From Opitutus sp. GAS368 (GTDB lineage Bacteria; Verrucomicrobiota; Verrucomicrobiia; Opitutales; Opitutaceae), in assembly GCA_945861645.1 (NCBI GenBank), contig CAMAVZ010000002.1:1-64000 (forward strand): a stretch of DNA of 64,000 nucleotides. Direction: 5' to 3'. A program made the translations under genes and the position numbers. Below the pieces are notes generated by a model. The model saw only the letters and a list, made by a program, of their open reading frames with translations. It did no database searches and was not told the DNA's origin. This document shows positions 49,569-52,998 of the stretch, in pieces (the first letter of the stretch is position 1; each line of letters begins with the position of its first letter).

Positions 49569-49988
49569 TCAACCACAGCCACTGCGGCGACCCAGGACGG
49601 AGCCAGTCGCCCCGCCCCCTAACCGAACGGGCCCGCAACCGCCCAGCCCCCGCGCGACTAAAAATGGCGCCAATTTTGTGAGCCGTGCCCGGTCGCGCAT
49701 AAACAACGGGACGTCGTCCACGCATTTTTCAAGACAGGCTAAGTTGACCTGGAAAGTAGGCGAAGGCTTGGCGGGTAGCATGTAGATCACCCAGTTGCCT
49801 TGGCGCCGACATTGCACTAAACCGCGGGCCCGCAGATAAGCTAAATGCTTGGAGATCTTTACCTGCGGCTCCCCTAGAATTGTTTGAAAATGACAAACAC
49901 AGAGCGGTCCAGGCATCAGCAAATGCAACACCCGCAAGCGCGTTAAATCCTGCAGGCTTTGGTAAATTTTTACTAATTCCACCCCCAA
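49569..49988 (-). CDS. arsR: ArsR/SmtB family repressor
   Basis: DLTRLRVL, GPLCVCH (CxC metalloid site), SKHLAYLR..GLV..RRQGNW; start TTG 49988 or GTG 49982. Confidence 0.88.
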   Translation of the reverse strand: MGVELVKIYQSLQDLTRLRVLHLLMPGPLCVCHFQTILGEPQVKISKHLAYLRARGLVQCRRQGNWVIYMLPAKPSPTFQVNLACLEKCVDDVPLFMRDRARLTKLAPFLVARGLGGCGPVRLGGGATGSVLGRRSGCG

Positions 49989-49989
49989 T

Positions 49990-50013
49990 CTATATTCTCA
50001 TACAAGAATATAG
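49990..50013. promoter_or_regulatory. Probable ArsR operator
   Basis: Perfect inverted repeat CTATATTCT-6 nt-AGAATATAG immediately upstream of arsR, just inside a TTGAGC -35-like hexamer. Confidence 0.75.
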
Positions 50014-50082
50014 CTCAAGTCAGAATATCGGGCGTTACCGCAATGTAACTTCCAGCTTTTCACTTAAACCCCAACCACCACC

Positions 50083-50454
50083 TCAGATGTGCTTAGAATC
50101 GGCTTCGTCTTTTTTGACGTAACCACTTTCCTGCCGTTGGTGATTAACGGCATTTTTCTTAAGATATGCTTGGTAAACATCGTCCGGCGTCATGCCGAGG
50201 GTCTGCGCCAGCGACACCAGAAAGTGGAAAAGATCGACGACTTCTACCTTAGCGTTCTGCTCGTCAAATTTCTGATACTTCGCCCACCACTTCCAAGGCA
50301 CACTATCAATCAGCTCGGCCGTTTCTTGCTGCATGGCACGAGTGTAATTGAGGATCCACTTCGCCTTTTCTTCGTCAGTGGGCGGGGGTAAATTCACTCC
50401 AATGCGCTTATTAAGCGCATCTTGCATACGAAAAATTTCCTCGAGTTTGTCCAT
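50083..50454 (-). CDS. Dimeric all-alpha dUTPase / NTP pyrophosphatase
   Basis: QETAELIDSVPWKWW, KVEVVDLFHF, KNAVNHQRQESGY; ATG 50454. Confidence 0.88.
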   Translation of the reverse strand: MDKLEEIFRMQDALNKRIGVNLPPPTDEEKAKWILNYTRAMQQETAELIDSVPWKWWAKYQKFDEQNAKVEVVDLFHFLVSLAQTLGMTPDDVYQAYLKKNAVNHQRQESGYVKKDEADSKHI

Positions 50455-50645
50455 GATGACTAACTTGAGCGCCACTTCCCCCTCTGGCAAGCCCGTCGCC
50501 CAGGAAAAATTAAGTTGCCCTGCTAGGGTGTATCCGCGACATTAACTAGCTATTGCCGCTGTTGAGCGAGATTTTCGAGCTCCAGCTGGCATCAACAACC
50601 CTGCGCCGCCACTCTTGGCAGGCGCTTACAACCAACAACATAGAC

Positions 50646-51581
50646 ATGTCATCCACAGAATCGTCCAATGCTCCGGCCGAAGCATCTGCGACCACCCCGG
50701 CGTCAAACGCCGAGTCCTCCTTCGGCTCCACGCGCGGCTCTGGCCTAGCCCGCGGGAAAGCTAAGCGTTCGAGTGCCCCTGCTGCCGCTACCGCGGCGTC
50801 TGCCGCGTACACCCCGACCGCAATTGCGGTCGTGACCGCTCCGCGTGAATACCAAAATCCGTTCGCCCCGGTGGAAACACCCGTGGCTGTAACTGAGTCC
50901 GCTGCCCCTGTCGCCCCCGCGCCAGTTGCTGCTGCTCCCGTTGCCCCTGTCAAAGCCCCTGCCGCGGTTATTGCCGCCCCCGTCCAAGTCGCCAACGAAG
51001 AGCCTGCGGAATTAAATATTCTCGAGCCCGAACAGCAGAAAACCGCGCCGGCCCAAACTTGGGAAAGCGAGGGATTCCGACCTGCCCGTGAGTCGCGCAA
51101 TGATCGTCCTCGGCGGGAAGAAGCCCGCCGCGAAGAACCTCGGCGCGCCGCAAGCCCCGCCCAAGAGCCGTTTGATCCAGCCTCGATTCCCGAGAAATTC
51201 ATCTACGTGCGTCCCGGCTACAATTATGTGCCCACACCGTCTAACTTCGGTGGGGCCCCACGCGAGAATCGCTCGACTCGTCCCGCCGCGCCGGATGCTT
51301 CCACAGCTCCACGCAGCCCCGCGCCGGCCCCATCGCGGGGATTTTTCAGCTGGCTGAAATCTCTCTTCACGAGTTCCTCCAGCACCTCGGCTTCTGCCGC
51401 GGCGCCATCAGGGGATCGCGCCTACAACCGCAACCGCGGTGATCGCGGGCGCAGTTCCCATGGTGGCAGCGGTGGTGGTGATGGCCAACGCCGCCGCAGT
51501 CGCGGGGGTCGCGGTCGGAGCCAATCCCGCGGTGACTATCGTGGCGGTGGCGACCAAGGCTCGAGTCAGGGCGGCATCTAA
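50646..51581 (+). CDS. Hypothetical intrinsically disordered protein (Ala/Pro-rich, amphipathic helix, RG-rich tail)
   Basis: Open frame from ATG 50646; upstream TTGCCC-17 nt-GACATT promoter-like site; own terminator downstream. Confidence 0.75.
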   Translation: MSSTESSNAPAEASATTPASNAESSFGSTRGSGLARGKAKRSSAPAAATAASAAYTPTAIAVVTAPREYQNPFAPVETPVAVTESAAPVAPAPVAAAPVAPVKAPAAVIAAPVQVANEEPAELNILEPEQQKTAPAQTWESEGFRPARESRNDRPRREEARREEPRRAASPAQEPFDPASIPEKFIYVRPGYNYVPTPSNFGGAPRENRSTRPAAPDASTAPRSPAPAPSRGFFSWLKSLFTSSSSTSASAAAPSGDRAYNRNRGDRGRSSHGGSGGGDGQRRRSRGGRGRSQSRGDYRGGGDQGSSQGGI

Positions 51582-51624
51582 AGCCACTTAACTCTTGCCA
51601 ACGCGCCCCGCGCGAATCGCATTC

Positions 51625-51655
51625 AAAGCGTCTGCCTTACGGTAGACGCTTTTTT
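51625..51655 (+). terminator. Intrinsic terminator
   Basis: AAAGCGTCTGCC-TTAC-GGTAGACGCTTTTTT. Confidence 0.85.
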
Positions 51656-51708
51656 ATTGTCGCTGACCGCAGCGCGTCACGTTCAACTCGCAATTCTACT
51701 CTCACCCG

Positions 51709-52998
51709 ATGGCTGATCTCATCATTCACGGCGGCAAACCCCTAAGCGGCACGATCACGCCCTCAGGCAATAAGAACTCTATCTTGCCGATTCTCTGTGC
51801 GTCCCTGCTCACCGACGCCAAACTCACGCTGCGGCACGTCCCGTTTATTACGGATGTCGAGAAGCTCGTGAATTTCTTCACGGAACAAGGCTCATGCATT
51901 GTGTGGAATCGCGCCGCTGGCTCAATGAGCATCGATCACTCGACCTTCGATGCTCGCCGCCTCAATGGCGAATTGCCCGCCGGGATGCGCTCTGCCGTGC
52001 TTCTCTTCGCGCCCCTGTTGCAGCGCATGAAGAAAATCACGCTGCCTACCAACGCCAAGGGTTGCTCGCTCGGCATTCGTGAACTGGACCCGCACTTGGA
52101 GATTTTCGAAAAACTAGGGGCCAAGATTTCTCATCAGCGTAAATTAACCATGGCCCTGCGCGGTCGTTTTCGCGCCGGCCGCCACTGGCCTGATTACATG
52201 TCGGTGACGGCGACGGAAAACTTCGTCATGGCCGCGGTGCTGGCGGAGGGTGAATCGGTGCTGCTCAATGCAGCGAGCGAACCTCATGTCCAAGACCTCT
52301 GCGCTGCCCTCGTCACGATGGGGGCAAAGATCACGGGCCTCGGTACCAGCCAACTCACGGTGTCGGGGGTTAAGCAGCTTAAGGGCGGCACGATCACGAT
52401 CAATACCGACCATCATGAGGTCGTCACATTTCTTGCGCTCGGCGCCATCACTGGCGGCGAAGTCCGCGTTAAAAATTCCCTCCCCCACCACTTTGACCTG
52501 ATCAATCGTTCGTTCGCCAAGTTGGGCGTCAAAATCGACTACGAGGGCGACACCGCTATCGTCCGCCGCCGCCAAAAGCTCGTCATCACACAACCCTTCA
52601 CCTCGAACCTACTGCCTAAAATTGAGGCTGCTCCGTGGCCTTACTTTCCGGTTGATCTGCTACCGTGCATGATCGCGCTCGCAGTGCGAGCTGAAGGCAC
52701 CGTGATGTTTTGGAATAAAGTCTACGAAGGTGGCTTCACTTGGATGTCAGAGTTATCTAAATTTGGCGCCCACGTGGTCGTCAGTGATCCGCACCGGATT
52801 ACTGTTTTTGGCGCCCGCCCCCTTCACCCCACGACGGTCGAAGCTCCTTACATCATTCGCGCCGCAGTCGCACTTTACATGGTGGCGGCCAGCATTCCGG
52901 GGAAAAGTGTGGTGAAAAATGCTGATACCATCAAACGCGCCCACCCTCATTTCGTCGAAAACCTGCGGAGCCTCGGCGCAGAGGTTGCATGGAAATAA
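51709..52998 (+). CDS. murA: UDP-N-acetylglucosamine 1-carboxyvinyltransferase
   Basis: SGNKNS.LP, GCSLGIR..DPH with active Cys, SVTATEN, NAASEPHV, PWPYFPVDL. Confidence 0.93.
   Translation: MADLIIHGGKPLSGTITPSGNKNSILPILCASLLTDAKLTLRHVPFITDVEKLVNFFTEQGSCIVWNRAAGSMSIDHSTFDARRLNGELPAGMRSAVLLFAPLLQRMKKITLPTNAKGCSLGIRELDPHLEIFEKLGAKISHQRKLTMALRGRFRAGRHWPDYMSVTATENFVMAAVLAEGESVLLNAASEPHVQDLCAALVTMGAKITGLGTSQLTVSGVKQLKGGTITINTDHHEVVTFLALGAITGGEVRVKNSLPHHFDLINRSFAKLGVKIDYEGDTAIVRRRQKLVITQPFTSNLLPKIEAAPWPYFPVDLLPCMIALAVRAEGTVMFWNKVYEGGFTWMSELSKFGAHVVVSDPHRITVFGARPLHPTTVEAPYIIRAAVALYMVAASIPGKSVVKNADTIKRAHPHFVENLRSLGAEVAWK

Follow-up and report, generated by a model that had tools for sequence, protein, structure and literature searches.

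A conserved disordered protein of the Opitutales that may act like the RNase E scaffold in trans

We analysed the first 64,000 nucleotides of contig CAMAVZ010000002.1 from Opitutus sp. GAS368 (GenBank assembly GCA_945861645.1), referred to here as the window, and in it a gene at 50646-51581 (+) whose 311-residue product we call X. The gene is real, looks expressed, evolves under purifying selection and is universal in Opitutaceae as a single copy. Its product is predicted to be disordered, with short conserved motifs, one hydrophobic helix and an Arg/Gly-rich tail. By analogy with the non-catalytic region of RNase E, X may be a peripheral-membrane, RNA-binding adaptor that would work like that region supplied in trans, a reading to which we give a probability of about 0.4. 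Disordered, membrane-tethered scaffolding of RNA decay is known almost only from proteobacterial RNase E, most other phyla having tail-less enzymes, and X, if a true scaffold, would be a testable case of one encoded apart from its nuclease. Whatever its function, X is a bacterial disordered protein that has kept motifs, helix and tail over the evolution of an order while its linkers drift.

The gene lies in an open frame spanning 50553-51581 (+). Translation from the first ATG, at 50646, runs through 311 residues with no internal stop, which confirms the open reading frame (ORF) of the initial annotation. The strings quoted there (FGSTRGSGLARGK, YQNPF, ELNIL, RESRNDRPRREEARREEPRR, IPEKFIYVRP, GFFSWLKSLF and NRNRGDRGR..RRRSRGGRGR) are all found in the translation, with GFFSWLKSLF at nt 51339-51368, i.e. 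residues 232-241. Judging from the alignment of 20 genus orthologues, ATG 50646 is the true start, because MSSxE begins all 20 and the upstream frame opens only two codons earlier in five of them. The ratio of non-synonymous to synonymous substitutions (dN/dS) was 0.09-0.33 in 11 of 11 pairwise comparisons, indicating purifying selection. Among 226 ungapped codon columns, position 3 varies in 205, position 1 in 121 and position 2 in 107. It is practically certain that X is a real protein. Antisense open frames overlie it, for example 50546-51202 (-) with 218 residues, but such frames commonly arise opposite G+C-rich coding sequence with much Ala, Pro and Arg and are not genes.

X defines a family absent from Pfam and NCBIfam, and is an unnamed, strongly conserved gene specific to one lineage, the order Opitutales. 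In a survey of 41 related genomes, 24 of them of the genus, X occurs once in 23 of the 24 genus genomes at 59-97% identity. A family profile built from 22 diverse homologues found one copy in each of 26 other Opitutaceae genomes sampled. Across 301 genomes of the phylum it gave elsewhere only weak partial matches, in 4 of 21 genomes of a sister family and in one further genome. Outside Opitutales, its one match in this set falls in the C-terminal tail of an RNA enzyme of the PolyA_pol family. Using X as the phmmer query against 1.84 billion representatives of 50% identity clusters, we obtained 121 clusters at E<=1e-3 and 61 at E<=1e-10, and 457 proteins match in the 90% collection; none of the 120 homologues listed among these 457 carries a Pfam domain. 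Named records come from Lacunisphaera, Oleiharenicola, Opitutus, Didemnitutus, Cephaloticoccus and Nibricoccus, which places them in Opitutaceae, and their automatic names include "hypothetical protein", "translation initiation factor IF-2" and "YgcG". A literature search whose coverage excluded subscription journals gave no paper on this family, nor one on a scaffold like that of RNase E occurring as a stand-alone protein in Verrucomicrobia. Two records deviate from the family. One genus genome has a TAA within its homologue (G272:C1:2914190-2915212), which may reflect an error in sequencing, or mark a frameshifted copy or pseudogene. The 873-residue database protein P0111 is X-like over its first ~90 residues and otherwise unrelated and Asn/Lys/Glu-rich, and is probably an assembly chimera rather than a true fusion.

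The initial claim that X has no recognisable folded domain is borne out by Pfam, NCBIfam, PDB and AlphaFold2 alike. Pfam gave no family at E<=1 for X and none at E<=0.01 for any of 22 family members, and NCBIfam gave none at E<=10 for X. PDB searches with the whole protein, the helix region and the family profile returned chance-level matches only. AlphaFold2, run with the family alignment, yielded a mean predicted local distance difference test (pLDDT) of 50.3 and a predicted template modelling score of 0.17. The sole secondary-structure element in the model is a helix at residues 233-241 (pLDDT about 82), while pLDDT is slightly raised, to about 60-66, over islands 2, 3 and 4 listed below. 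According to these models, X is very likely disordered with one helix. The features of the protein and its flanking DNA, where an island is a short conserved stretch, are as follows.

50563..50645 (+): conserved 5' leader, from the genus alignment, nhmmer and RNAalifold
50646..51581 (+): coding sequence of the 311-residue disordered protein X, stop codon at 51579-51581
50646..50669 (+): N-terminus MSSTESSN, family consensus MS[DE]xxTSG
50721..50768 (+): island 1, basic patch FGSTRGSGLARGKAKR, residues 26-41, from the family alignment
50808..50876 (+): island 2, YTPTAIAVVTAPREYQNPFAPVE, residues 55-77, pLDDT up to about 65
50877..51002 (+): Ala/Pro/Val-rich variable linker, residues 78-119, insertions and deletions abundant between species
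51006..51089 (+): island 3, AELNILEPEQQKTAPAQTWESEGFRPAR, residues 121-148
51090..51146 (+): Arg/Glu mixed-charge block ESRNDRPRREEARREEPRR, residues 149-167
51171..51266 (+): island 4, FDPASIPEKFIYVRPGYNYVPTPSNFGGAPRE, residues 176-207, genus-specific
51333..51371 (+): hydrophobic/amphipathic helix SRGFFSWLKSLFT, residues 230-242, candidate membrane-targeting sequence
51414..51545 (+): RG/RGG-rich basic tail, residues 257-300
51558..51578 (+): C-terminus GSSQGGI, in the family ..EGQQGGGAI or GSSQGG[VI]
51625..51652 (+): intrinsic terminator, a hairpin followed by a T-run, structure kept in 20/20 genus orthologues

Conservation of the islands in homologues, which had been proposed as a check, is what the alignments show: the short motifs listed are all kept, and the Ala/Pro/Val linkers vary by insertions and deletions. 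In island 1 (family consensus FGxxRGSGLARGKR), R30, G31, G33, L34, R36, K38 and R41 are invariant in the 22 family sequences. Island 2 (Y[KT]PTxxEV..EYxNPF) has P57, N71, P72 and F73 invariant, and island 3 (ELNILPP..WE) has I125 and W139 invariant and L123, L126, P127, P128 and E140 nearly so. The Arg/Glu block takes longer, PRE/RDD-type forms (Arg/Asp/Pro) in other genera. Island 4 (IPxxF[LI]YVRPG..VPTP) is present in 20/20 genus sequences and, of the 21 others in the family alignment, only in P0210, which is of the same genus. A search for the X-specific island motifs elsewhere in this genome, as in motif mimicry, found them only in X.

The helix is the element on which a membrane role would depend. 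G232, W236, L240 and F241 are invariant in the 22 family sequences, whose consensus is GGF[FL]GWLKxLFGG. The helix presents a Phe/Trp/Leu face with one Lys and small residues opposite, and is flanked by flexible sequence. The 11-residue window RGFFSWLKSLF has the top helical hydrophobic moment of X, 0.646 (mean hydrophobicity +0.24), a value that 64 of 2000 shuffles of X reached and that is thus only modestly above chance. The helix alone is therefore moderately unusual, and its weight comes from conservation. Most relatives have a lower moment, 0.29-0.53, because Gly replaces Ser and Arg on the polar face. Of the amphipathic helix named in the initial annotation, what stands is that GFFSWLKSLF is predicted, conserved and the site of the top moment; in most relatives it is more hydrophobic than amphipathic. 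Taken together, its residue pattern makes it a candidate membrane anchor, and we consider this role rather more probable than not having it.

The RG/RGG tail that had been described is present and conserved in the family. It begins 15 residues after the helix, carries a net charge of +7 over residues 281-300 and has the family motif RRRxRGGRGR, often twice. From this composition the tail is a putative RNA-binding segment, and on balance probably binds RNA. Tails of this kind accompany RNA proteins in these genomes, which counts in favour of such a role; the tail of the PolyA_pol-family enzyme mentioned above is one. A 135-residue RRM_1 protein (G000:C3:50045-50452 (-), locus L149) has a Gly/Arg/Tyr-rich tail, GGGYRGGGGGRGGRGG.., denser in RG than any other genuine tail in the genome except that of X, and the DEAD-box helicases of this genome have shorter R/G tails. 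Compared by language-model features, residues 140-311 come closest, among named clusters, to C-terminal fragments of RNase E (0.81), then to RhlB tails (0.79) and to 'putative ribonuclease E' (0.76); these similarities are all under 0.9, lie in the range that shuffled proteins reach and serve as a lead only.

The comparison with RNase E rests on the account of the E. coli enzyme in the relevant parts of PMC4435900. There, the non-catalytic region (530-1061) holds a membrane-targeting sequence at 565-582, an Arg-rich segment AR1 at 604-644, the helicase-binding site HBS, a second Arg-rich segment AR2, the enolase site EBS and the PNPase site PBS, as microdomains in disordered sequence that is A/E/P/V-rich and R-rich. 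X shares the disorder and this bias (A 18%, P 11.6%, R 10.6%, E 6.8%, V 4.5%), with A/E/P/V-rich linkers and R-rich segments. In both, as far as that account goes, a short helix, in X a candidate amphipathic one, is followed within about 15-22 residues by an Arg-rich segment, and short conserved islands stand in fast-evolving linkers, with a motif set that turns over between lineages. Unlike the RNase E tail, X is a stand-alone protein of 311 residues with no nuclease domain and no sequence homology to it, its islands and charged block lie N-terminal to the helix, and it is restricted to Opitutales. The RNase E/G catalytic domain PF10150 is not joined to X, as no Pfam domain is found in X or its 22 relatives, and no fused longer form of 546-2000 residues was seen among 7999 candidates, which is weak evidence. 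Known partner microdomains (helicase, enolase and PNPase sites; PF12111) were likewise absent from X and the 22 relatives, and its tail and Arg/Glu block do not align to AR1 or AR2. The resemblance to RNase E scaffold architecture proposed in the initial annotation thus holds, against the parts of the RNase E account used here, for the elements with their helix-then-tail order, the composition and the mode of evolution; it does not hold for homology, for PF12111 or PF12300, or for the islands across sister families. That X works like the RNase E region is partly supported as an analogy, X being neither homologous to that region nor a member of its family.

In the proposed adaptor, the helix would lie in the plane of the cytoplasmic membrane and tether X, the RG/RGG tail and the Arg/Glu block would bind RNA non-specifically, and the N-terminal islands (basic patch, YxPT..EYxNPF and ELNILPP..WE) would fold on binding one or more folded partners. 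X could then concentrate RNA and partner enzymes at the membrane, in trans, where RNase E/G is tail-less. The non-catalytic region of RNase E does this job in cis, with its membrane-targeting sequence, Arg-rich RNA-binding sites and partner microdomains.

Whether the RNase E/G of this genome lacks a tail had been suggested as a check, and in 5/5 genus genomes the protein ends right after the catalytic domain. The genome has a single homologue, of 583 residues, on another contig than X; it scores 467 bits against TIGR00757, below the RNase G and RNase E equivalog cut-offs. The gene (G000:C16, locus L024 895-2646 (+)) encodes a low-complexity-looking N-terminal extension of ~70 residues. In 5/5 genus genomes this extension contains a conserved amphipathic segment, RPILQKIL[SNG][IV]FRKEKG, with a hydrophobic moment of 0.71-0.82, a candidate membrane-targeting sequence by its pattern. 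A RodA/FtsW-like ORF precedes the gene, whose contig also carries RNase Y at a distance of 2-10 kb.

In the slot that X occupies, the sister families f18, f14 and f10 hold a different disordered protein of 220-290 residues. Their N-terminal motifs (MPEFEE.., YTPS.., RRRSGGFK and a charged helical ER/K stretch) differ from those of X. They share its plan, in which a basic patch and a charged block are combined with a hydrophobic/amphipathic helix and an RGG tail. The helices, GGLIASILKLFGLG, KGFFGRFIAGIIAFFKG and SLWRKFANWLTSLF, are Gly-flanked, sit at about 0.65-0.75 of the protein length and precede an RGG/RGGQNRR tail. In hhalign comparisons of X with the sister families only the helix aligns, over 23 columns with a probability of 90% and an E-value of 1.6e-6. 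As only the helix aligns and the plan of the back half is common, the helix and the basic tail form the order-wide core. The N-terminal islands, by the same alignments, appear to be specific to the family of X.

Among 80 loci of named genomes, the gene order is a dUTPase_2-like gene (-), X (+), MurA (+) and RuvB (+) wherever the contig reaches. The dUTPase-like gene is present in 71 loci, X in 76, MurA in 74 and RuvB in 66, while conservation does not extend to the remaining neighbours in the window (MFS transporter, GAPDH-like, ArsR). Beyond these Opitutales families the dUTPase-like gene has other neighbours.

A terminator of its own, as claimed for X, was found 44 nt past the stop, where 51625-51652 forms a 12-bp stem with a T-run. 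A hairpin of <= -10 kcal/mol stands immediately before the T-run after the stop of X in 20/20 genus orthologues, and the stem sequences differ. The promoter-like site that had been claimed did not reappear: a sigma-70 consensus scan gave none on the + strand upstream, its only site being on the - strand at 51722-51693. A sigma-54-like TGGCA..TTACA upstream, noticed by eye, was rejected with a spacing one base short. An own transcription unit is instead supported indirectly by the conserved ~80-nt leader. This leader (50563-50645) contains hairpin 1, GAGC..GCUC, and hairpin 2, GCGCCGCC..GGCAGGCGC; an unpaired stretch rich in CA, AACCAACAACAUAGAC, then leads up to the AUG, and no Shine-Dalgarno-like sequence is present. 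nhmmer found 50 matches to it, of which 43 are distinct sequences. According to RNAalifold, helix 2 is 98.7% and helix 1 73.7% paired, with double changes at 6 of 16 pairs, whereas the fold z-score of the single sequence is only -1.66. An Rfam scan of 50300-51900 gave no match. The whole intergenic region 50491-50645 is unusually conserved in nucleotide sequence across genera, with the blocks GAAAAATTAAGTTGCCCT and ATTGCCGCTGT, then the two-hairpin leader, the invariant CA-rich AACCAACAACATAGAC and the ATG; in many species 26 nt are inserted between two of the blocks. The region may act in cis as a regulatory leader, perhaps for autoregulation, or may enhance translation.

Contigs from RNA libraries cover the X ORF in 4 of 4 runs from 4 studies (50739-51536, 50572-51311, 50566-51412 and 49862-52639, the last from a relative with 139 differences); as such contigs can contain DNA and there is no silent control stretch, they support expression without proving it. 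Two studies gave contigs that start at 50566 and 50572, near the start of the leader, a weak hint of an own transcription unit. In three runs the contigs on X have greater depth than neighbouring ones, a difference given no weight because genes cannot be ranked by contig depth; uncovered parts of the flanks were likewise given none.

Several observations weigh against the adaptor reading, besides the modest moment of the helix, the range of the language-model similarities and the limited force of the RNA-library contigs. X has no homology to RNase E, with PF12111 and PF12300 unmatched at E<=1 for X and at E<=0.01 for its 22 relatives. None of the conserved neighbours of X, murA, ruvB and the dUTPase-like gene, is an RNA gene. 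Sister families do not share the N-terminal islands, which makes one ancient fixed partner less likely. RG-rich tails bind DNA too, besides RNA. In addition, 5/5 genus genomes carry RNase Y, a membrane-anchored enzyme in Firmicutes; with it, and with a candidate amphipathic segment on RNase E/G itself, a separate scaffold is not obviously needed. Finally, according to Table 2 of PMC3071783, RNase E/G generally has no tail except in Proteobacteria and Actinobacteria.

With Gly on its polar face, the helix could instead be a protein-docking element. X would then be a soluble cytoplasmic RNA chaperone or condensate protein whose helix serves docking or self-association, which is possible, if unlikely. 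The helix is short (9-11 residues), Gly-flanked and, as said, mostly more hydrophobic than amphipathic in relatives; Arg, Tyr, Phe and the mixed-charge block fit a phase-separating disordered region, and RG tails accompany RNA-binding proteins in this genome. The residue pattern speaks against it, since Trp/Phe/Leu, a single Lys and small residues on one face are typical of interfacial membrane helices.

The adaptor reading leaves the partners of X unspecified, and that these are RNA-decay enzymes is unlikely. The narrower proposal built on it, that X is a trans-acting organiser of a degradosome or of RNA decay, i.e. the RNase E scaffold as a separate gene, is by the same analogy distinctly unlikely. 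X would sit on the membrane beside the tail-less RNase E/G and RNase Y, with the RGG tail holding RNA and the islands bringing in decay enzymes. Like rne, it might control its own expression via its conserved structured 5' leader.

The conserved neighbours suggest two further roles. One is a cell-envelope adaptor tied to MurA, for example holding this enzyme, the first of peptidoglycan synthesis, at the membrane or regulating it there. Wherever the contig is long enough to show it, murA comes next after X on the same strand, and the sister-family counterparts of X have the same position; between families f1 and f18, X and MurA are sharply diverged, but RuvB and the dUTPase-like protein are not (identities of 31-33% for MurA, 71-76% for RuvB and 77-80% for the dUTPase-like protein). 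The Opitutaceae MurA is also atypical, with 341.5 bits against the TIGR01072 equivalog cut-off of 392.7. We nevertheless regard this role as improbable: the intrinsic terminator between X and murA is conserved in 20/20 genus genomes, the RGG tail and Arg/Glu block have no evident role in MurA control, and the gene order may simply be inherited. The other is a tether of nucleoid or DNA to the membrane, possibly linked to recombination via ruvB and similar to Noc, which combines an amphipathic helix with DNA binding. It would suit the DNA binding of RG-rich tails and the conservation of ruvB in 66 of 80 loci, yet X has no DNA-binding fold, ruvB is two genes off and past a terminator, and the same type of tail is found here on RNA enzymes and RRM proteins, so that its chance is slim.

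A membrane tether for ribosomes or the translation machinery, in the manner of YqjD/ElaB, or a hibernation-type factor, with basic segments that bind rRNA, is similarly doubtful. In composition, the basic patch RGSGLARGKR and the RGG tail are reminiscent of extensions that bind rRNA, and the gene occurs universally in one copy and apparently forms its own transcription unit, closed by a strong terminator. X has no similarity to YqjD/ElaB or to ribosomal families in Pfam and NCBIfam, and FtsY here is the normal short form with its own N-terminal amphipathic segment. Finally, a chance open frame in G+C-rich DNA, for which one could cite the G+C of 0.62-0.64 across the ORF and the long antisense ORFs, is refuted by the genus and family alignments and the codon analysis, given dN/dS of 0.09-0.33 with third-position variation and a start codon, motifs and frame kept across an order; its probability is negligible.

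The two flanking genes deserve a description of their own. The MurA-like gene (51709-52998 (+)) is the sole one in the genome. Its product passes the PRK09369 subfamily cut-off, and it shares only 31-33% identity with the MurA of the sister-family slot, a bona fide one at 549 bits. Its segment GCSLGIRELDPH appears, by eye, to keep what we take to be the active-site Cys position. Either murA has diverged rapidly in Opitutaceae or it has been displaced there in situ. The dUTPase_2/MazG-like protein (50086-50454 (-)) has a mean column identity of 94% over 29 Opitutaceae sequences, and identities of 72-82% across the order and 54-67% across the phylum, far above MurA or X. Its start is most likely the ATG that gives MDKLEEIF (123 residues), not the upstream TTG of a 135-residue ORF, and only its residues 13-95 match dUTPase profiles, in their first half. 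A complex prediction for MurA, two dUTPase-like chains and X residues 1-245 (scores 0.00 and 0.00, mark 0.32), with three kinds of chain in a tool calibrated for pairs and with no controls, counts neither for nor against an interaction.

Three other identities for X were rejected. For IF-2, the name that the automatic annotation of one source gave to several homologues, neither the GTP-binding nor the IF-2 domains were found in Pfam or NCBIfam, and the name most likely reflects a low-complexity likeness to the IF-2 N-terminal region. An FtsZ tether was discarded as FtsA is present in 5/5 genomes checked, so that no tether is missing, and a split FtsY A-domain was discarded in view of the normal short FtsY described above.

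Besides RNase E, X can be set beside three groups of known systems. The basic tails of DEAD-box helicases (RhlB, PF12300; RhlE-type, RGG/Q) are, like that of X, Arg/Gly(/Gln)-rich and unstructured, and the composition is especially similar in the sister-family versions (RGGQNRRGGKGGNRGG). Unlike RhlB, X has no helicase core and no PF12300 match, and it has an extra helix and N-terminal motifs. Noc of Bacillus subtilis and YqjD/ElaB of E. coli are membrane-tethered binders of nucleic acid or ribosomes. They use folded domains or a transmembrane helix and have no sequence relation to X, but are alike in concept, with a membrane element and a nucleic-acid-binding element in one small protein. MinD, FtsA, RNase E and FtsY use amphipathic in-plane helices as peripheral membrane anchors. 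The helix of X is internal, at ~0.7 of the length, with no folded domain attached, and its membrane binding is putative; what it has in common with these anchors is its shortness, a Phe/Trp/Leu face opposite small residues, one Lys and flexible flanks.

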